Assembly (NCBI GenBank): GCA_015520065.1
Contig: WAQV01000059.1
Span: forward strand, 1-25,466
DNA from: Candidatus Pacearchaeota archaeon
GTDB taxonomy: Archaea; Nanobdellota; Nanobdellia; Pacearchaeales; GW2011-AR1
Length of the DNA stretch: 25,466 nt
Direction: 5' to 3'
In this document: positions 4,961 through 16,309 of the stretch, one piece after another
Layout of the letters: each line of letters starts with the position of its first letter
Position numbering within the stretch: position 1 is the first letter of the stretch
Program-made: the position numbers and the translations under genes
Notes under the pieces: generated by a model
The model's database searches: none
What the model saw: the letters and a program-made list of their open reading frames with translations, nothing else
Told to the model about the DNA's origin: nothing

Positions 4961-4977
4961 AAAACAAACTTTATATA
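4961..4977 (+). promoter_or_regulatory. BRE/TATA promoter of the pilin-like/SLT operon
   Basis: AAAACAAAC followed by TTTATATA (4970-4977), 21 nt before ATG 4999, so this unit has its own promoter. Confidence 0.65.
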
Positions 4978-4998
4978 CATAATTTCCGTTGTTTTTAT

Positions 4999-6897
4999 AT
5001 GAATAAAAAAAGAGGACAGGTAAGTGTTTTTGTGATTGTTGCTATACTTGTTATAGGCGGAATTGCAGCATTTTTCATGCTTAAGGACAGGTTTGTTTCA
5101 AAAGCCCTTCTGCCAGCATCTCTAGAGCCGCCATACAAAAGTTTTCTAAGCTGTCTTGAGGATGCTGCAGAAATAGGAACTGATGTTCTTTCTTTTCAGG
5201 CTGGCTACATTGAACTGCCTGAATTTGAGCCAGGCTCTGATTTTATGCCTTTCTCCTCGCAACTTGACTTTATGGGCACTCCAGTACCTTACTGGTATTA
5301 TGTTTCAGGAAACAACATTCAGAAAGAACAGATACCTTCTAAAACAGAAATGGAAGACCAGCTGAACAGCTTTATCGAGGATAAAATAAAATCCTGCAGG
5401 TTTGACAATTATTATGAAGAAGGATTTAAGATAACACTCGGAAATCCTAAAGCAAAAACCTCAATCAAAGAGGATGCAGTAGAAGTAAACCTTGGAATGA
5501 AAATGGAAATTGAAAAAGGCGACGAGAAAGCAATAATAAATAACCATAAGATAACAATTAAATCAAAACTTGGAAAACTCTATGATGCAGCAAAAAAGAT
5601 TTACAATTACGAGCAGAAAACTCTTTTTCTTGAGAATTACTCTGTAGATATTTTAAGGCTTTATGCTCCTGTTGATGGTGTTGAGCTGTCATGCAGCCCA
5701 AAAGTATGGATTGCTGATAATGTTTTTGACACTCTGCAGGATGCAATTGAATCAAACATTATGGCTTTAAAAGTTAAAACAGGTGACTACTCTTTAAGAA
5801 GCAAGGAAAACAGGTATTTTGTTGTTGATTTAAGCCTTGACAGGGATATTGATGTTAGATTCATTAACTCTAAAAACTGGCCTAATTCATTTGAGGTTGC
5901 TCCTACAGAATCAGCTGAAAACAATATCCTTATTGCAAAGCCTGTTGGAAACCAGCCAGGGCTTGGGATAATGGGATTTTGTTATGCTCCTTATCATTTT
6001 GTTTATAACATTAAATATCCTGTTCTTGTTCAGCTTTCTTCAGGAGATGAGATGTTTCAGTTTCCTGTTGCAGTTGTAATTCAAGGCAATAAGCCAAGAA
6101 AACCTCTTGAAGGTGCTGAGTCTTTAAGCCTGCAGGCAACAGAGTTATGCAAGTACAGGAATACTTTTATTGAGGTTAATACTTATGATACACGGCTTAA
6201 TCCTGTTGAAGCAAAGATTTCGTATGAGTGTTTAGGAGTGAAATGCGACATAGGAAAAACTTCTAAGACAAAGCCTCTTAAAGGACTGTTTCCTGAGTGC
6301 GTTAATGGCTATATAATTACAGAAGCAGAAGGATTTGAAGATGCTAAATATTTATTCTCTACAAACAAGGAGGGAAGTGCAGACATTATTCTTGACAAAT
6401 TGTATAAACTGAAAATCAATCTTAATCTTGATGGAAGGCCTTACTCAGGAGACAACGCAATAATCCATTTCATTCCTATTGACAAGCCATCAAAAGGAGG
6501 AAAGAGTATTGTTTATCCTATGCAAAAAACAATAGAGTTAAGCGAAGGAGAGTATGAGATAAGGGCTTATATTTACAGAAATTCCTCTTTAAGAATACCT
6601 TCATCTTCAATCCAGCAGTGCGTTGATGTTCCTGCATCAGGAATTGGAGGAATTCTCGGAATTACAAAAAAAGAGTGCTTTGATGTTGAAATTCCAGAAC
6701 AGATTGTCTCAAACGCTCTTGCAGGAGGAGGTGTTGAAAGATATTATGTTCTTGAGTCAGAACTCGAAAATTCAGGCACAATAGAAATAAATGCTTACAG
6801 CCTGCCTTTGCCGAACTCACTTGAAAAACTTCAGGAAAATTATATATTATTTGAAGAACAGGATTTAGATATAATCTTTAAGAATGCAGAAGAATAA
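4999..6897 (+). CDS. Exported surface protein with class III (type IV prepilin-like) signal peptide, 632 aa, 10 Cys, beta-rich C-terminal half
   Basis: N-terminus MNKKRG|QVSVFVIVAILVIGGIAAFFML fits the archaeal [KR][GA]|Q-hydrophobic prepilin peptidase consensus. A carboxypeptidase-regulatory/Ig-like stretch is suggested by 'IEVNTYDTRLNPVEAKISY...GYIITEAEGFEDAKY'. Confidence 0.75.
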   Translation: MNKKRGQVSVFVIVAILVIGGIAAFFMLKDRFVSKALLPASLEPPYKSFLSCLEDAAEIGTDVLSFQAGYIELPEFEPGSDFMPFSSQLDFMGTPVPYWYYVSGNNIQKEQIPSKTEMEDQLNSFIEDKIKSCRFDNYYEEGFKITLGNPKAKTSIKEDAVEVNLGMKMEIEKGDEKAIINNHKITIKSKLGKLYDAAKKIYNYEQKTLFLENYSVDILRLYAPVDGVELSCSPKVWIADNVFDTLQDAIESNIMALKVKTGDYSLRSKENRYFVVDLSLDRDIDVRFINSKNWPNSFEVAPTESAENNILIAKPVGNQPGLGIMGFCYAPYHFVYNIKYPVLVQLSSGDEMFQFPVAVVIQGNKPRKPLEGAESLSLQATELCKYRNTFIEVNTYDTRLNPVEAKISYECLGVKCDIGKTSKTKPLKGLFPECVNGYIITEAEGFEDAKYLFSTNKEGSADIILDKLYKLKINLNLDGRPYSGDNAIIHFIPIDKPSKGGKSIVYPMQKTIELSEGEYEIRAYIYRNSSLRIPSSSIQQCVDVPASGIGGILGITKKECFDVEIPEQIVSNALAGGGVERYYVLESELENSGTIEINAYSLPLPNSLEKLQENYILFEEQDLDIIFKNAEE

Positions 6898-6917
6898 ACC
6901 TGTTAAAGAAAACTAAA

Positions 6918-9900
6918 ATGTCGCAAATAACTCTGAAAGAAATGCAGAAAGAAAAAACAAAGAGGCTTTTAATGCTCTTGACAGTGTCAGTTATAGTTGT
7001 TTTGTTAGTGTCTTCTGTTATTTCTGCTTATTACAGGTCAAGTGTTCAGTACACAAGACCTGGGATAAGTTCTTATAGTTACCTAGGCAAGCAGGGAGTT
7101 TCTTTTCCTGTTTTCGATGATGAGCTGTGCAAGTCTGGGCAGGATTTTATAGTACAGATAAGTCCTCTTGGATGCACTCCGAGTGTTGTGAGAAGCGACC
7201 TTTTAGAGGAACAGAATGTTCCTGTTTTTTGTCCATTAATAGCTACAAAACTAAATCCTTTGATTGATGTGGAAGCAATAGATTATATAAGCTTCTCTCC
7301 CCGTGGATACACTAAAGAGGTTGCAGGAGTTGGGTTTCATCCTGCAAGAGCAGCTCTTAGAGGAAACTACAAAACTCTTCTTAATTCTCCTGTTTTAGAG
7401 AATATTGGTTATGCTGTTATTGTTCTTAAAAAACAAAAGAATGAGTCGGCAATGCCTGACTGGGTTCAAGGTAATTTAACAGCAAAAATAAGATATGACA
7501 TTAAAAATGCTTTTGGAGTTGGAAAAGCGGTTTACTATCTGCCTGAGCTGGATGACACGGAGTGGGTTTTAAATTACAAGCAGTATGGATTCTGGCAAGG
7601 AAGAGGGTTTTTAAGAGCAGAGGATATTGACAAAGATTCTGCTTTTATATCTATTTATTCTGACAAGAACAATAAAGTGTCAGGAGTCAGGCTTAAGAAA
7701 GGTGAAACTTCAAGAGAGATTTACATCCCTGGATTTTATTGTTTTGGAGGGATGCAGTTGAAACTTCATGACTTGGATGTTCCTGACAGGAGAGCAAAAC
7801 TTAATGTAAATGGAGAAATTGTAGAGGTTGCAAAAGGTGAAAAATTCCTTGACAACAAGTGCCGTGTCAAGGAGCTTCAAAAATACGGTCTTCTTGAGAG
7901 TGTCTCAATAACATGCGAAGAAGATGATGGAATAAACAAGTTTGATCTGACTATCAGTCCAAGGATTGCTCTTTCTATAACTGATAAAAGTGGCAGTGAA
8001 GTTGTTAAAGATTATGGAGTAGGAGACAAGCTGTATGAGTTTGATAAGGATGGAAAAAAAGAGTATGTTTATATTGGATATATTGGAACTGCAATTCAAA
8101 ATGCTCGAGATGGCAATAAAAGATACACCATGTCAAACTCTTACAGGGAAGATGAATTGATAGTTTATCTTTACAAAACTCCTCAAGATAAAGGAGAGCA
8201 GCTAAGTTTCAGAGATATATCCTCAATAGGAAAATCCATTAACTCTTATCTTTATTGGATTTCTGGTCCTGTAAAAAGAGTCATTAAAGGAGAGGTAAGT
8301 GAAGCTGTTTATTATAAAGATGAACCTAAAGAAGTTTGGGGAAAAAATAAAATTAAAATCATAGGATTTGCTGGACCTCAGGACAAGCCGTTTGGCAAAT
8401 GCGAAAAGAGTAATGATGTGACTAATGGTGAAAATACTCCTGAGTGTAATCAGTATGAAACTCAGGAGGAATGTGAAAGTGCAGATGCAGGCAGTTGTCA
8501 ATGGGTTGAAGAAAGTGGAGATTTAAAGGAAGTAAAAACAAACTATGAAAATGCATTAAAGGATTACAGGACTCTTATTGAGAGTTTTCCTTCTGAAAAG
8601 GAAAATGAAAACAGCCTTGAAACTTTCGGTGAGAGAGCATTTTTCAATTCAATAAGGCTTGCAGAGAAATTAGGACAGAAAAGAACAATGCTTAAATTCT
8701 GCAAGGAATTTGAGGAAAGTTTCCCTGACTCAAAACTTCTTTATGATTTAAGAGAAACCTGCTCAAGCGAGCTGAAAGCTTCAAGCCAGAGCACCTCAAC
8801 AATGGATGTTCTTGTTAATGGCAGAGTAAAGGAAATTTCCCTTGAAAGAGTTTATGAGCCAAGCCTTGAAGAATACAGCGCAGAGGTTAAAATTAATGGT
8901 TTAGGAAAGAGCAGCATTGTCAAGATTTTAAGAAAAAACACTCCTTCTTCTCTTGAGGAAAATGGCAATACTGTAGGGTCAATAGAGATTTTATCTTTAA
9001 CAGAGGATTCAGCAAAACTGAGAATAGAGATTTCTCCTGCAGACAGCACTGACAGCAAAAAAAGGAAATTTTCAAAGACAGTAACACTTAAACTTGACGC
9101 TCCAGAGAGTTTTGATAGTGATTATACATTTACTTTAACAAAAATTAACTTAAAGAAACTCGCAAAAGTGTCTGTAATACCTCGTGTAAACAATGCAGGT
9201 ACAGAAGCAAACTTCAGCTTTAAGATTGGAATTGAGAAAAGAGCAATACAGCTAAGCCCTGAACAAGCAAAAGAGAAAATAAAGAACCTCAATGAGTCAA
9301 TTGAAAAATGGGAGAAAATCTCAAACAATTTAGGAAATGTAGTGAGAGGAATGAAAGCTGCATGTTTAATGACAGGAACTGCACTGACAATCAAAAATTT
9401 ATTTGCAGGAATGAAGGGAAAAGCAGGAGCAAGGCACGAAGCAACACAGTTTTACAGGGAAAAATGCAGCCGTGATATTAAAGACCCTGACAGCCCATAT
9501 TATAAAAAATCAGTTTCCCAATGCCTTGTCGGCTACAATGACGAGATTAACAGTGCAGTAGAGATAATCGCGAAAAAAAGAATGTCTCAAATAAGGTTTT
9601 CTGAGAAAGAGTTGTGCAGTGATAAGATAAATAGTTTAGGAAGTGGTTTAAAAAATATCAATAGTGATGAAGAACTAAGCAGACTTGCAAAAGATGAAGA
9701 CATAAAAGGTTTGTTTTCCCCAGCATCACTGAGCGACGGAACATGTGACAAGCCATTAACAACAGACGAGGCAGAGAGAGTTGCATTGTATCTTGATATT
9801 ATTAATGATGACAGGTTAAGTTCTGAGGTAAGAGGTGGCTACAAAGAAAAACTCAAACAGCTCTTAACAGAACTAAAAGAGAATGCTGAGGATTATGCAT

Positions 9901-12842
9901 CAGTTAAAAAGGCGCAGGAAAGTGAAATTCCAGGAGAGGTAGTTTGGATCAAGCGAAAAGATTCAGTAGAAGCAGAATGGTATGGAACAAAAACATCAAA
10001 AGAGGGTGAGATAGGAAGTGAGCAAGAAGGAACTCCTTATCAGAAGATAATTTACAATGGAGTGCTGTATATTGTTACACTCAAAGAAACCTATGAAGGA
10101 AGCGGAGAGTATGTTATTAAGAACATATACAACGAGGATGGAAAAGAGGTAACAGATGAAGAATTAACTGAGAAGATTAAACAGCGTTACGAGATTTTCA
10201 AAAAAATCGACCCTGCTGCATACAAGAACAGATATGAAAATCCTGAAGTGAAGTACTGGGAGGCAGGAGAGTTCAAAGGGCTTCCTGCTGTTGTTCCGTT
10301 TGACATTAAAAACGGATGGTATGCAGCAACAAAGTCATTTTCAAGAGGAACAATTAAAGCATATCATGAAAGCGGTGCTGTAAACTTCTTCTATATATGC
10401 AATGTTATGAAAAACAATCGACAGGACGGAATAAACAGAGGAGATGATAAATGCGTTGGATTTTTTGCATCAGATATAGGAAACCTTAAAGGCAAAAAAT
10501 TCCCAGGGCTTACAGAAGCACAAACATCCAAGCTGTTGAGAAAAGCAATTCAAGCAATTGAGGATGCATCAAGAGGTTACAAAACTGGAGTAAGAAAAGT
10601 CAAAATAAGAAATGTTGGCTATGTTGATGTAGGAGTTCCTGAAGTAAACCTTCCTGGAACTCAGTGCGAGGACTTCATGTCTCCAAAAGACTGCAATCTA
10701 TTGTTTAATGTTTGCGACCCAGTAATCTGCCCTTCAAGCAGGTGTAATGCAGGAGGTTCTTACTATGTAAGCAATGTAATTAGGTCTGGATTTGTAGGAA
10801 GCACGTTCTTGTGCCTTCATAATTTTGGGACTCCATCCGAAGGAGGTGTTTTAATTCCAGTATGTCTTTCAGGGCTTAAAGCAGCTGCAGATGGGTGGCT
10901 GTCAATACTAAAAAGCCATAGGGACTGTTTGCAGAGAAATCTCCAGACAGGTGAGATGATAGGGTTTTGCGATGAGGTATATAGTATTTATGTATGTGAC
11001 TTCTTCTGGAAGCAAGCATTGCCTCTTATAAAAATGAAGCTTCCTGATATTGTTACATCAATGGTTACAGGCAGGAAGGATTCTGGAGGAGGAGAGTATT
11101 TAATATTTAAAGAAGCATGGGAAAATGCAGGAAAATCAATTGATTATATGGCTCAGTATTATGCCGAAAACTCTTACAAAGCATTCATATTGAGAAGCAC
11201 AGATGAAATAGGAAGCGCGCTATGCAAATCATTCATATCAGCAAGATACCCTGCTTCAGCAGACTTCTTCGATAATCTCATAGAACCAGATGTTCCCGCT
11301 CAGTACAACGCATGGTTTCATGAAACTCCTTTTACAACAGCAACATCGCCTCCAACATCTCAATACAAAGTGTTTTACCACATCTATTCAGGGAAAGATA
11401 CTGGAGTGTATTACAGTGTTTATCTTAAAAGCCCTTCGGGAAGTTCTTTTTACCAGTACTCAGAAACACTTCCTGTTGCAAGAGGATTCATACCTCGTGG
11501 AGAATATGCATCTGAAACGAGAGATTTTACTGCGCCATCAGGATATCAGGAGTTATGCATAAACATAAACGGTCAGGAAGAGTGTGGGTTTGGAAGGGTT
11601 TCAACATCATTTGCAATGGATTACATTGAGGATAAGATTGTAAAAGACCAGATTGAAAGGCAAGACATTAAGTCTGAAAAAGAGTGCATTTCAGGAAGTC
11701 CGAGCCTTTATGGCTTAATAAGCCCTAATCTTCAGGCAGGAGCAGAGCAGGCAATAGACCCTCAAATCTATAACAAAGGAATTGTAAGAGTATGTTCAAC
11801 AGAAAATCCAGGCAAGGGAACAAACGAGGAAAGATGGGTGAGAGTCGGTTATTGCGATGAAACAAAAAGAGTGAAATGCTGGCTTGACAAAGAAAGCATA
11901 AACAGTGTTGTTGAGTTCAATGCAACACGTGAGGAGTTGAAGGAATTCACTGATGACATACTTGAAAAATTAAGAGAAGAAGGAGGATACATTAAGCTTG
12001 ATGAAAATGATGTTAGAGAGTTTAGGAAAATTGTTGGTGGAGATGATAAAGGAAAGATTAAGAAATTAATAGAGGACATTACTGGAACAGATGAAAGAAA
12101 AGGGCTTATTGACAGAGTATTCTTCAGCAAAGAAAAAGCAACACTTTATCTTCTAAGAGGAGATGCTTATGCAAGGCTTGCTGAAATGCTGTTTACAGGC
12201 ATGAAGGATGAAGAAAAAGAAAAAGCCAACACTGAGGAAAAAGAGGAGAAAACAGCAGAAGAAGAAAAAGCTGAAAGAGATGAAGAAACACCTGAAGATA
12301 AAATTAAAGAGAGTGGTCCAATATTACCTGAACCTAATCTTGACCCTAAACCAGACAATGCCGAACTTTTAGACAGATTAAGTAAATACGATAGGATTAT
12401 TAAAGAGAATTCTAAGAAATATGGTGTTTCTCAAAGCCTAATTAAAGCTATTATTTCTCAAGAAAGTGATGCCAAATATGACGCTATTGATAAAAAAGGA
12501 GATTCTTATGGCTTAATGGGTATTACTGAAGGGGCTGCGAAAGATGTTGGGATGTATACTCAGTTTCAAAATAATAAGCTTAGACCATCAACAAATATAG
12601 AAATTGGAACTAAGTATTACAAAAGATTGGAGAAATACTACAGTGAAATGAATTCAGGAGAAGATTTAAAGAAGATAACTCTAGCAGCATACAATTGGGG
12701 AATGGGAAACATTTATGTAGAAGGATACGAAGATAAAGCAGCGTGTCAGGAAGGAAGATGGGTAAATTGCAAGAATATTCCTCAAGAAGTTTTACAATAT
12801 GTTTCTAATGTGATTGCTTATGAGAAAGAATTTGCTAAATAA
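6918..12842 (+). CDS. Giant (1974 aa) exported Cys-rich multidomain protein with a C-terminal lytic transglycosylase (SLT, GH23) domain
   Basis: N-terminal basic + hydrophobic signal (KRLLMLLTVSVIVVLLVSSVISA); about 38 Cys by hand count; acidic linker; SLT motifs IISQES (Glu1849), YGLMGI, NIEIGTKYY, LAAYNWG, YVSNV. Alternative start ATG 6942. Confidence 0.88.
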   Translation: MSQITLKEMQKEKTKRLLMLLTVSVIVVLLVSSVISAYYRSSVQYTRPGISSYSYLGKQGVSFPVFDDELCKSGQDFIVQISPLGCTPSVVRSDLLEEQNVPVFCPLIATKLNPLIDVEAIDYISFSPRGYTKEVAGVGFHPARAALRGNYKTLLNSPVLENIGYAVIVLKKQKNESAMPDWVQGNLTAKIRYDIKNAFGVGKAVYYLPELDDTEWVLNYKQYGFWQGRGFLRAEDIDKDSAFISIYSDKNNKVSGVRLKKGETSREIYIPGFYCFGGMQLKLHDLDVPDRRAKLNVNGEIVEVAKGEKFLDNKCRVKELQKYGLLESVSITCEEDDGINKFDLTISPRIALSITDKSGSEVVKDYGVGDKLYEFDKDGKKEYVYIGYIGTAIQNARDGNKRYTMSNSYREDELIVYLYKTPQDKGEQLSFRDISSIGKSINSYLYWISGPVKRVIKGEVSEAVYYKDEPKEVWGKNKIKIIGFAGPQDKPFGKCEKSNDVTNGENTPECNQYETQEECESADAGSCQWVEESGDLKEVKTNYENALKDYRTLIESFPSEKENENSLETFGERAFFNSIRLAEKLGQKRTMLKFCKEFEESFPDSKLLYDLRETCSSELKASSQSTSTMDVLVNGRVKEISLERVYEPSLEEYSAEVKINGLGKSSIVKILRKNTPSSLEENGNTVGSIEILSLTEDSAKLRIEISPADSTDSKKRKFSKTVTLKLDAPESFDSDYTFTLTKINLKKLAKVSVIPRVNNAGTEANFSFKIGIEKRAIQLSPEQAKEKIKNLNESIEKWEKISNNLGNVVRGMKAACLMTGTALTIKNLFAGMKGKAGARHEATQFYREKCSRDIKDPDSPYYKKSVSQCLVGYNDEINSAVEIIAKKRMSQIRFSEKELCSDKINSLGSGLKNINSDEELSRLAKDEDIKGLFSPASLSDGTCDKPLTTDEAERVALYLDIINDDRLSSEVRGGYKEKLKQLLTELKENAEDYASVKKAQESEIPGEVVWIKRKDSVEAEWYGTKTSKEGEIGSEQEGTPYQKIIYNGVLYIVTLKETYEGSGEYVIKNIYNEDGKEVTDEELTEKIKQRYEIFKKIDPAAYKNRYENPEVKYWEAGEFKGLPAVVPFDIKNGWYAATKSFSRGTIKAYHESGAVNFFYICNVMKNNRQDGINRGDDKCVGFFASDIGNLKGKKFPGLTEAQTSKLLRKAIQAIEDASRGYKTGVRKVKIRNVGYVDVGVPEVNLPGTQCEDFMSPKDCNLLFNVCDPVICPSSRCNAGGSYYVSNVIRSGFVGSTFLCLHNFGTPSEGGVLIPVCLSGLKAAADGWLSILKSHRDCLQRNLQTGEMIGFCDEVYSIYVCDFFWKQALPLIKMKLPDIVTSMVTGRKDSGGGEYLIFKEAWENAGKSIDYMAQYYAENSYKAFILRSTDEIGSALCKSFISARYPASADFFDNLIEPDVPAQYNAWFHETPFTTATSPPTSQYKVFYHIYSGKDTGVYYSVYLKSPSGSSFYQYSETLPVARGFIPRGEYASETRDFTAPSGYQELCININGQEECGFGRVSTSFAMDYIEDKIVKDQIERQDIKSEKECISGSPSLYGLISPNLQAGAEQAIDPQIYNKGIVRVCSTENPGKGTNEERWVRVGYCDETKRVKCWLDKESINSVVEFNATREELKEFTDDILEKLREEGGYIKLDENDVREFRKIVGGDDKGKIKKLIEDITGTDERKGLIDRVFFSKEKATLYLLRGDAYARLAEMLFTGMKDEEKEKANTEEKEEKTAEEEKAERDEETPEDKIKESGPILPEPNLDPKPDNAELLDRLSKYDRIIKENSKKYGVSQSLIKAIISQESDAKYDAIDKKGDSYGLMGITEGAAKDVGMYTQFQNNKLRPSTNIEIGTKYYKRLEKYYSEMNSGEDLKKITLAAYNWGMGNIYVEGYEDKAACQEGRWVNCKNIPQEVLQYVSNVIAYEKEFAK

Positions 12843-12916
12843 ATTTTAAATGAGATGAAATTCTTTTGCATTAGATACTTCTCTAATTTCTATTTTTGAA
12901 GTAATCTTAAAAAGCA

Positions 12917-13000
12917 TGCGGGGAGAAGGATTCGAACCTTCGCAGGCACTAAGCCAGCGCGTCTTGAGCGCGCCCCGTTTGACCGCTCCGGCATCCCCGC
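12917..13000 (-). tRNA. tRNA-Leu(CAA), 84 nt, long variable arm
   Basis: Acceptor GCGGGGA/TCCCCGC, anticodon stem GCGCG/CGCGC with loop CTCAAGA, variable arm, GGTTCGAATCC T loop, A73. Confidence 0.97.
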
Positions 13001-13082
13001 ATATAAGAAGCAGAAATTACTCATATAAAAATCTTTAGAATTAATTAAAGCAGGAACAAACAACTGAGCAACCAAAACAAGA

Positions 13083-14015
13083 TTACCCCTCTTTCTTTTT
13101 GCTCAACTCTTTTTCTTTCTGCTTTATTTTCTCTTCAAGGTTAAGCTTTTCTATTAACTCTTTGTACCTGTTTCTTATTGTTACCTCTGTTATTCCTGCA
13201 ATATCTGCAACCTCTCTCTGAGTCTTCTTCTCGTCATTCATTAATGCAGCAACATACAAAGCAGCTGCTGAGATTCCTGCAGGACCTCTTCCTGATGTAA
13301 GCTCAACTTTCTCTGCCTGTTTAAGTATCTTCAAAGCATCGTTTTGGGTTTTAGGAGAGAGTTTCAAAACTGAGGAGAATCTCGCAATATAATCTTTTGG
13401 AGAACTTTGTTTTACTTTAATTCCGAGCTTCCTTATTATAAACCTGTATGTTCTTCCAATCTCTTTTCTCTCAACATCAGAGGCAGTTGCCATCTCATCC
13501 AAAGTTCTCGGAATATTGTAAGACCTGCATGCAGTATATAAACATGCTGCAATTACTGACTCCATGCTTCTTCCTCTTACAAGCCCTCTCTGAAGAACAT
13601 AGTTGTAAATTCTTGCAGCCTCGTCACGCACAACATTTGGAAGATTCAAGTAAGATGCAATGACTCTAAGCTCTGCCATAGCAAGCCTTAAGTTTCTTTC
13701 AATGCTTGTTGAAACTCTTTCCTGCCATTTTTTAAGTCTCAGGAATTTTCTTGTCTGACCTGGAGCAAGTTTGTAAATATCAGAAATCTCTCCAACATTT
13801 GTCGTAAGCCCTTTGTCAAACTTCTGCATGCTTATAGGAGCTCCGCCACGACCTTTTTTCTCATGTTTGTCAAACTTTCCAGAAAGGTCAATTCCAGTAT
13901 CAACCATCTTTTCCTCAATAACAAGGCTGCAGTCATTGCAGATTATCTCTCCAAGATGAGGGTCATAAGTCAGGTTGATACTTCCGCATTCAGGACATTT
14001 TTTGACAAAAGCCAT
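13083..14015 (-). CDS. tfb: Transcription initiation factor IIB (TFB)
   Basis: Zn ribbon CPECGS...GEIICNDC, two cyclin repeats ('RGLVRGRSMESVIAACLYTACR', 'GRGPAGISAAALY'), C-terminal 'TQREVADIAGITEVTIRNRYKEL'. Confidence 0.98.
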   Translation of the reverse strand: MAFVKKCPECGSINLTYDPHLGEIICNDCSLVIEEKMVDTGIDLSGKFDKHEKKGRGGAPISMQKFDKGLTTNVGEISDIYKLAPGQTRKFLRLKKWQERVSTSIERNLRLAMAELRVIASYLNLPNVVRDEAARIYNYVLQRGLVRGRSMESVIAACLYTACRSYNIPRTLDEMATASDVERKEIGRTYRFIIRKLGIKVKQSSPKDYIARFSSVLKLSPKTQNDALKILKQAEKVELTSGRGPAGISAAALYVAALMNDEKKTQREVADIAGITEVTIRNRYKELIEKLNLEEKIKQKEKELSKKKEG

Positions 14016-16182: not shown

Positions 16183-16309
16183 TGAGCCTGCCCGGATTTG
16201 AACCGGGGACCTCTGGCTCTCTTAGATTTGTCCAAGAGATATGCAACCGTTCAGAAAACGGTCACACTCTTATAAGACCAGCGCTCTAACCAGGCTGAGC
16301 TACAGGCTC
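16183..16309 (-). tRNA. tRNA-Ile(TAT) with a 52-nt canonical 37/38 intron (16219-16270)
   Basis: Acceptor GAGCCTG/CAGGCTC, A73, D stem GCTC/GAGC, anticodon TAT at 16274-16272. BHB: central helix C32-A35 (CTTA) with intron TAAG, 3-nt bulges TA|A and AG|A. Mature length 75 nt. Confidence 0.93.

Follow-up and report, generated by a model that had tools for sequence, protein, structure and literature searches.

Why would an archaeon that appears to make no peptidoglycan export a giant protein ending in an enzyme predicted to cut it? The question is raised by a 25,466-nucleotide stretch of DNA from Candidatus Pacearchaeota archaeon (GenBank assembly GCA_015520065.1, contig WAQV01000059.1), hereafter the window, which is the whole 25.5-kb contig of a 0.70-Mb assembly (102 contigs, 80% complete). 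The gene content of the contig is archaeal, with TFB, an archaeal-type ribosomal protein S2 and aminoacyl-tRNA synthetases. Two adjacent genes are at issue: gene A, which encodes a pilin-like protein of 632 amino acids (aa), and gene B, which encodes a protein of 1,974 aa with a C-terminal SLT (GH23 lytic transglycosylase) domain. Comparison with relatives supports A and B as a real, co-conserved unit predicted to form one operon, in which the partner is fixed and the enzyme at the end of B is exchangeable. With moderate confidence, we read the pair as a pilin-anchored surface scaffold that would hold a tethered peptidoglycan hydrolase against bacterial cells.

The linkage of the two genes was examined in the DNA downstream of A from 40 species genomes, 20 from the same order and 20 from other families, in which A is about 30% identical. 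In all 40, the next gene on the same strand was a homologue of B of 1,590-2,977 aa, one of them cut by a contig end and another split by a frameshift. The split homologue (L052:3830-9530, minus strand) occupies two overlapping frames of 1,464 and 488 aa and represents a frameshift, a sequencing error or a pseudogene. An earlier note on this DNA, made from the letters alone, had treated the pair as one unit and named a lack of co-conservation as fatal to it; the neighbourhood survey found A followed by B throughout, even in the families with A at about 30% identity. Gene A itself was present in 235 of the 401 sampled genomes of the class. These include every sampled genome of the order (85/85), with 76/76 from the window's own family and 9/9 from elsewhere in the order; in other families, presence was mostly all-or-none.

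The junction between the genes points the same way. An ATGA overlap joins A and B in 12 of 21 loci and 0-3 nucleotides (nt) separate them in a further six, which indicates translational coupling; the 20-nt spacer of the window, which the earlier note had already described and which was verified at 6898-6917, lies at the loose end of this range. Neither a TATA box nor a Shine-Dalgarno sequence is present in the spacer. The true start of B may be M9 (nt 6942), because homologues align from that residue, and the spacer would then be 44 nt.

A dedicated promoter had likewise been placed at 4970-4977, and TTTATATA is indeed found there. An (A/C)TTTATATA box lies exactly 29 nt before the ATG of A in 13 of 22 orthologous loci, a recurring position that makes the TATA box more than an A+T-rich chance occurrence. 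Its distance from the ATG in the window implies a leaderless or near-leaderless mRNA. In the remaining 9/22 loci the box is absent at -29, and a small upstream ORF (open reading frame) and a Shine-Dalgarno-like GGAGGTG site precede A; one such ORF, of 43 codons, overlaps the start of A (L004:9873-10004). The small ORF is absent from the window, which has the TATA version, and was not found elsewhere in the same genome, for a short query and an assembly 80% complete. The features of the 5' part of the unit are as follows.

4966-4977, plus strand: promoter, a BRE-like AAAC and then the TATA box TTTATATA (4970-4977), 22 nt before the ATG of A; read from the sequence, with a box position shared with orthologous loci
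4999-6897, plus strand: gene A, 632 aa, the putative pilin-like anchored partner; from the ORF call and family searches
5008-5085, plus strand: predicted class III (prepilin-type) signal of A, KRG/QVSV (the slash marks the cleavage site), then a hydrophobic helix at aa 4-29; from motif conservation and the AlphaFold 2 (AF2) helix
4999-5643, plus strand: pilin-like N-terminal domain of A (aa 1-215), a long helix and then a four-stranded sheet; from the AF2 model and the multi-copy family
6151-6888, plus strand: three predicted beta-sandwich (Ig/CnaB-like) domains of A, aa 385-630; from AF2 and Foldseek
6898-6917, plus strand: A-B spacer, 20 nt; read from the sequence

The claim that a class III signal-peptide protein stands upstream of B was borne out. 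Protein A starts MNKKRGQVSVFVIVAILVIGG, which fits the FlaFind-type class III pattern, and its signal region (KRG/QVSVFVIVAILVIGG) combines a basic N-terminus, a [KR][GA] cleavage site and a hydrophobic helix. Of 120 homologues of A, 94 retain the motif [KR][GAS]-Q-[VLI]-T-[IVL]-F, and most of the others have Ser at -1. More than 2,235 homologues of A were found, and the top 120 share 57-63% identity across 99% of the length, none of them with a functional name at source. Pfam, NCBIfam and PHROGs hold no family for A, and no relative was found by PDB profile search or among IMG/VR viral contigs.

The AF2 model of A (mean predicted local distance difference test score, pLDDT, 72) has helices at aa 4-32 and 40-66 and a small alpha/beta domain with a four-stranded sheet at aa 144-188, compatible with a pilin fold. 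Residues 210-335 are strongly conserved yet left unfolded by AF2, and the three beta-sandwiches mostly reach pLDDT values of 85-94. Foldseek matches were limited to these sandwiches and had low TM-scores; they include Gram-positive pilins, adhesins, B. anthracis TIE and SlaB. Against PDB and viral structures, only generic beta-sandwich matches were returned (TM-score ~0.1). Residues 1-215 of A define a family with 2-5 members in each of 13/13 relatives; those other than A stand alone, are 245-300 aa long and share its class III start. By sequence and model, the N-terminal 215 aa of A are assigned to a pilin-like family.

The means of processing such a protein are encoded in the same genome. 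The search that the earlier note had proposed for PibD and for type IV pilus ATPase and TadC genes found all three kinds away from A: a PibD-type peptidase (PF01478 match at C4:2440-2787, E 2.8e-15), T2SSE ATPases and T2SSF (TadC-type) platform genes, the last two on contigs other than that of A. A PibD-like peptidase is present in 60 of 61 genomes of the order. The PibD-type gene lies 18-32 kb from A in 12 of the 14 genomes that have both on one contig (e.g., G089, G114, G168 and G293), and merely 3.6 kb from A in G132; this spacing looks like conserved macro-synteny rather than operon linkage.

The second gene of the unit is a single-copy gene in its own genome, and the features of its product are listed here.

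6918-12842, plus strand: gene B, 1974 aa, a predicted exported giant with a conserved core, a linker and an SLT tail; from the ORF call and homologues
6966-7031, plus strand: putative Sec-type signal peptide or signal anchor, aa 17-38, ending ISA/YY; from a hydropathy scan
7095-7997, plus strand: N-terminal core block, aa 60-360, with six invariant Cys; column conservation 0.6-0.86 in 120 giants
8595-9557, plus strand: middle core block, aa 560-880, helical or coiled-coil-like; from conservation
10155-11957, plus strand: C-terminal core block, aa 1080-1680; from conservation
10650-11297, plus strand: Cys-dense segment, aa 1245-1460, unfolded by AF2; within the C-terminal core block
12201-12362, plus strand: flexible linker, aa 1762-1815, the boundary of core and tail; from composition and a drop in alignment occupancy and conservation
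12396-12713, plus strand: SLT/GH23 lytic transglycosylase domain; from Pfam, a PDB profile and motifs
12462-12464, plus strand: codon of the predicted catalytic Glu1849; motif reading
12510-12521, plus strand: GLMG motif; motif reading
12687-12701, plus strand: AYNWG motif; motif reading

The description of B as an exported, Cys-rich protein of 1,974 aa held for its length and its N-terminal signal, and a hydropathy scan gave one transmembrane-like segment only (aa 17-37); "Cys-rich" here stands for 38 Cys (1.9%), and 30 of these positions show conservation of at least 94% across the family. Core identity between orthologues is 39-56%. An alignment of the 120 nearest giants shows three well-conserved stretches (aa 60-360, 560-880 and 1080-1680) and a collapse of conservation after aa 1760; an alignment of 37 giants was also made. 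The linker of the window's protein is 55 aa long, 56% Glu/Asp/Lys and then Pro-rich. No relative of the core was found in Pfam, NCBIfam, PHROGs, the PDB profile search or Foldseek, and the AF2 model of the C-terminal part of the core reached a pLDDT of 62.5, with aa 1245-1460 unfolded. These comparisons describe B as a conserved core of about 1,750 aa, predicted to be disulfide-rich, followed by a variable C-terminal tail. The core folds of A and B match nothing solved, so their structures are probably new. More speculatively, the unfolded conserved parts of the two proteins may fold on each other.

The tail of the window's protein carries what had been reported from the letters, namely SLT motifs in the last ~150 aa. 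The profile check gave a match to Pfam SLT PF01464 at aa 1827-1932 (58 bits against a curated cut-off of 21.3, E 8.5e-16), and the predicted catalytic Glu is kept (E1849 in ISQES), with YGLMGI and AAYNWG also present. The best solved relative is MltC (E 2e-7), with MltF and goose-lysozyme structures matched too, and the PHROG matches of this part are annotated 'lytic tail protein' and 'internal virion protein with endolysin domain'. Across the family, SLT tails were detected by an iterated, family-specific SLT HMM (hidden Markov model), since single-linkage BLAST clustering was uninformative, placing all tails in one cluster. In this way, 66 of the 120 nearest giants proved to have an SLT domain. 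The catalytic Glu is retained by 66/66 and the Y-N motif by at least 63/66, which indicates that the HMM search did not drift; the Ser of the E-S motif is present in 61/66. Judged by its catalytic residues, the SLT domain of the window is predicted to be intact.

Two further small secreted SLT proteins are encoded in the same genome. One, of 209 aa, lies at L054:3710-4339 on contig C100, 1.4 kb upstream of a second pair of pilin-like and Cys-rich genes that is described below; the other, the third SLT gene of the genome, is on contig C83 (L056:2812-3942) and encodes 376 aa with an N-terminal membrane segment, 14 Cys and an SLT domain (E 4.6e-13).

The composition of the tail was tallied on 40 complete genes, that of the window and 39 from GTDB species genomes. 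These form the safer tally, since some of the SLT-absent homologues in the 120-protein set end at contig ends. The tails contain the following.

SLT: 10/40 complete genes
Peptidase_M23: 3/40
Peptidase_M15_4: 2/40
NlpC/P60: 1/40
Transglutaminase-like (weak match): 1/40
Calcineurin-like phosphoesterase: 1/40
No Pfam domain: 22/40

A peptidoglycan hydrolase thus ends 16 of the 40 complete orthologues, and three of the 22 tails lacking a Pfam domain are nearly absent, at 69-142 aa beyond aa 1680. The same slot in other homologues of B holds Amidase_3, Amidase_2 with Peptidase_M15_4, VanY/LdcB, Peptidase_M10, GDSL lipase, DUF1615 or TPM. Exchange appears frequent: on the core tree, SLT presence requires at least 31 changes, whereas shuffling the labels gives 52.7 ± 3.4, and sister sequences differ in SLT presence in 16 of 52 cherries. 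Truncation at contig ends accounts for some of these differences and makes the 31 an upper-leaning estimate. On this tally, the SLT domain is not a defining part of the system. The occurrence of several unrelated peptidoglycan hydrolase families in one slot is nevertheless strong comparative evidence that peptidoglycan would be the usual target of the tail enzymes. Because the enzyme tail is optional, the core formed by A and B is predicted to have a function of its own, independent of the enzyme, most simply presentation or contact.

Part of this picture is already in the literature. The passages of Castelle et al. (2021, PMC8204110) on fam00969 describe giant extracellular murein-like transglycosylase proteins of 2,000-3,000 aa in Pace- and Woesearchaeota, with an SLT domain and an export signal, and cite earlier sightings (Rinke 2013; Castelle 2015). 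A predatory reading was drawn from 'large lytic murein transglycosylase' genes in a passage of Vigneron et al. (2022, PMC9723730), and a 2025 study in PLoS Biology (PMC12352652) reported that peptidoglycan hydrolases of archaea are able to kill bacteria, genes of this kind being prominent in Nanoarchaeota. B fits the published description of fam00969 (the comparison is with the description, not with the family HMM), sharing its lineage, size class, N-terminal export signal, C-terminal SLT/GH23 domain and proposed role against bacterial walls, and its nearest homologues are labelled Pacearchaeota or Nanoarchaeota, some as 'transglycosylase SLT domain-containing protein'. B is a member of fam00969, and neither the giant SLT protein nor its anti-bacterial reading is new. 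The novelty claimed for the two-component architecture fared better: no description of the partner gene or the modular tail was found in a search covering part of the literature, and the fam00969 passages in those papers define the family by its SLT domain and mention no upstream partner, SLT-less core or tail exchange. What goes beyond those papers is the operon structure, the fixed partner, the core of unmatched fold and the swappable tip, together with a multi-copy pilin-like family that has Cys-rich partners.

From these features, the following mechanism may be proposed. A would be made with a class III signal, probably cut by the PibD-type peptidase of the genome, and its N-terminal hydrophobic helix would hold it in the membrane or in a type-IV-filament-like assembly, with the three beta-sandwich domains forming a stalk. 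B would be exported through Sec, fold into a disulfide-rich scaffold of ~1,750 aa and stay attached to the surface through A, through its own signal anchor or through the two together. Its exchangeable C-terminal module, which here is a putatively intact GH23 lytic transglycosylase, would be carried on the 55-aa flexible acidic/proline linker. At contact with a bacterium, the tethered enzyme would cut peptidoglycan glycan strands locally, aiding attachment, access or feeding. We infer the binding of A to B, their location at the surface or in a filament, the activity of the enzyme and a living bacterial host as its target.

Two related claims of the earlier note, that the producer lacks the target and that no immunity gene follows, agree with what was found. 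Searches of the genome (80% complete) gave no matches to Mur ligase, transpeptidase or FtsW/RodA, and no immunity-like ORF lies 3' of B in the window, where tRNA-Leu and then TFB follow. If the archaeon makes no peptidoglycan, no immunity protein would be needed.

Several results weigh against this reading. No pilus-assembly gene was linked to the A-B operon in any neighbourhood examined and neither protein's core resembles a solved fold; the surface appendage with a penetrating role that had been proposed is a conjecture. The 22 complete orthologues that lack a recognisable tail enzyme, three of them nearly tail-less, indicate that wall cutting is not the core function of the pair. The SLT domain of the window has GLMG where 60 of 66 relatives have GLMQ, Gly occurring in 5/66. 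For a host-contact protein in an arms race, an identity of 57-63% among the 120 homologues closest to A is unusually high. The most conserved segments (aa 210-335 of A and aa 1245-1460 of B) are left unfolded by AF2 and match no solved fold, so that no mechanism can be read from the structure models. Finally, the absence of murein synthesis genes is provisional for a genome that is 80% complete.

Some of these points would suit a structural envelope pair resembling a two-component S-layer, in which A is an anchored stalk, B the outer canopy and the enzyme tails optional decorations. We consider this unlikely, although it accounts well for the presence of the pair in all genomes of the order that were sampled, for its place amid housekeeping genes whose synteny is conserved, for the high sequence conservation and for a tail that some lineages can do without. 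A TATA box that is strong and conserved in position, together with a leaderless start, is typical of highly expressed genes, and several other pairs of pilin-like and Cys-rich genes occur, as if the whole surface were built so. The SlaA/SlaB S-layer of Sulfolobus, like the arrangement proposed for A-B, comes from two adjacent genes, one for a large protein on the outside and one for a smaller beta-sandwich stalk anchored in the membrane, and SlaB is among the Foldseek matches to the putative stalk of A; that match (8qox_B, E 2e-4) has a TM-score of only 0.13 and is a weak, generic beta-sandwich resemblance. The gene order and anchor type of SlaA/SlaB differ from those of A-B, and we know of no enzyme modules on SlaA. 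S-layer proteins usually diverge fast and, to our knowledge, do not carry class III signals, which counts against a lattice role for this conserved pair. Wall-cutting enzymes of several chemistries in 16/40 tails are also hard to explain for a pure lattice.

A somewhat less probable alternative is a surface-tethered digestive enzyme that harvests peptidoglycan from necromass or shed wall and involves neither specific host contact nor penetration. The range of peptidoglycan-degrading chemistries in the tails and the two small secreted SLT proteins of the genome suit nutrient harvest, and dead-cell peptidoglycan has been proposed as an amino-acid source for Pacearchaeota (PMC11537232). For a genome of ~0.7 Mb, however, a scaffold of ~1,750 aa with a dedicated partner would be a costly means of holding an enzyme of 150 aa, and many orthologues have no recognisable enzyme to hold. 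An artefact, whether a chimeric SLT end from assembly or a fused or mis-called ORF for B, is very improbable despite the fragmentation of the assembly into 102 contigs, given the flat G+C profile, with no break found at the SLT end, the uninterrupted reading frame and the recurrence of the order core-linker-SLT both in no fewer than nine further complete GTDB genomes and, in independent assemblies, in 66 of the 120 nearest homologues; a chimeric join was rejected on that recurrence.

The pilin-anchored scaffold with a tethered hydrolase is retained as the preferred reading, and an extension of it deserves mention as a possibility, albeit a doubtful one. A-B might be a lineage-defining host-contact organelle of Pacearchaeales and related Nanoarchaeia, a pilin-anchored, disulfide-locked scaffold with interchangeable wall-cutting heads. 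If so, these very abundant uncultured archaea would be episymbionts or predators of bacteria rather than of archaea, the tail type would predict the wall chemistry of each lineage's bacterial partner, and the sister pairs of pilin-like and Cys-rich proteins would belong to the same previously unrecognised surface system. We know of no member of the Pace- or Woesearchaeota that has been cultured with an identified partner. An operon present in every genome of the order that was sampled, with hydrolase tails from unrelated families in 16 of 40 complete orthologues, is among the strongest genomic arguments for a bacterial partner.

Known systems share parts of this design. Polymorphic toxins (CdiA of contact-dependent inhibition, CDI; Rhs proteins; effectors of type VI and type VII secretion systems, T6SS and T7SS) combine an extended, conserved region for delivery or presentation with a C-terminal domain that varies, and they resemble B in this architecture, in the enzymatic nature of the variable part and in frequent module turnover between close relatives. 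The B locus, unlike theirs, has no immunity gene, known demarcation motif or linked secretion-system gene, its predicted target is peptidoglycan rather than the cytoplasm, and its producer is an archaeon that lacks that target. Membership of these systems was rejected for want of a cognate immunity gene downstream of B. The tip complexes of type IVb pili, such as CofB-CofJ of enterotoxigenic Escherichia coli (ETEC) and TcpB-TcpF of Vibrio cholerae, have a secreted protein presented by a large minor pilin. A-B shares with them a pilin-type N-terminus with beta-rich C-terminal domains and a separately exported partner; it differs in having no sequence or fold match to them, no linkage to a pilus operon and a partner of ~2,000 aa that carries an enzyme. 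Phage virion and tail lysins and VirB1-type hydrolases likewise place an SLT domain for local wall cutting, on a large structural protein as in B, whereas the core of B has no PHROG or PDB relative and only the 150-aa SLT part matches.

The pairing of a pilin-like protein with an exported, Cys-rich one is not confined to A and B. Short copies of the N-terminal domain of A directly precede large exported Cys-rich proteins in the same genome and in the two relatives examined. These exported partners are mutually homologous (25-48% identity), have no Pfam domain and showed no BLAST similarity to B; from their sequences they are taken as a second uncharacterised surface protein family. The recurrence of short paralogues with Cys-rich exported partners marks a pilin-like protein followed by a Cys-rich exoprotein as a recurrent design in these genomes, of which A-B appears to be the largest and most conserved case. 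On contig C100 of the window's own genome, the gene of a 283-aa paralogue with a class III signal (L054:5753-6604) directly abuts that of an exported protein truncated by the contig end (L054:6605-10078), which has 62 Cys and a length of at least 1,158 aa. In the two relatives, tandem arrays combine pilin-like proteins of ~256 aa with Cys-rich exoproteins of 489-1,267 aa and 40-66 Cys (L057:8023-14884 in G362; L058:1702-11390 in G405), and no type IV filament ATPase gene was found near these two clusters of short pilin-like paralogues. Elsewhere in the window's genome, contig C77 carries a 245-aa paralogue (L055:2937-3674, minus strand), then a 404-aa exported ORF and then SecY, and a further short paralogue lies on contig C64 (4404-4997).

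The 3' boundary of the A-B unit remains to be described. That it ends at a convergent tRNA-Leu, as the letters had suggested, was confirmed by tRNA search.

12843-12915, plus strand: intergenic tail with oligo-T tracts resembling archaeal terminators; read from the sequence
12916-13001, minus strand: convergent tRNA-Leu(CAA), which closes the unit; from a tRNA search
13083-14015, minus strand: convergent TFB gene, beyond tRNA-Leu(CAA)

ARAGORN at default settings gave tRNA-Val, tRNA-Leu and tRNA-Glu as the only tRNA genes of the window, leaving unreported a proposed intron-containing tRNA-Ile(UAU) at 16183-16309. The A-B pair is followed by a convergent TFB gene in three further metagenomic neighbourhoods as well (L004-L006), where TFB or a homing-endonuclease ORF stands 3' of B. 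The latter is found between the giant gene and TFB at L006:18052-18765 (minus strand), with weak matches to LAGLIDADG homing endonucleases.

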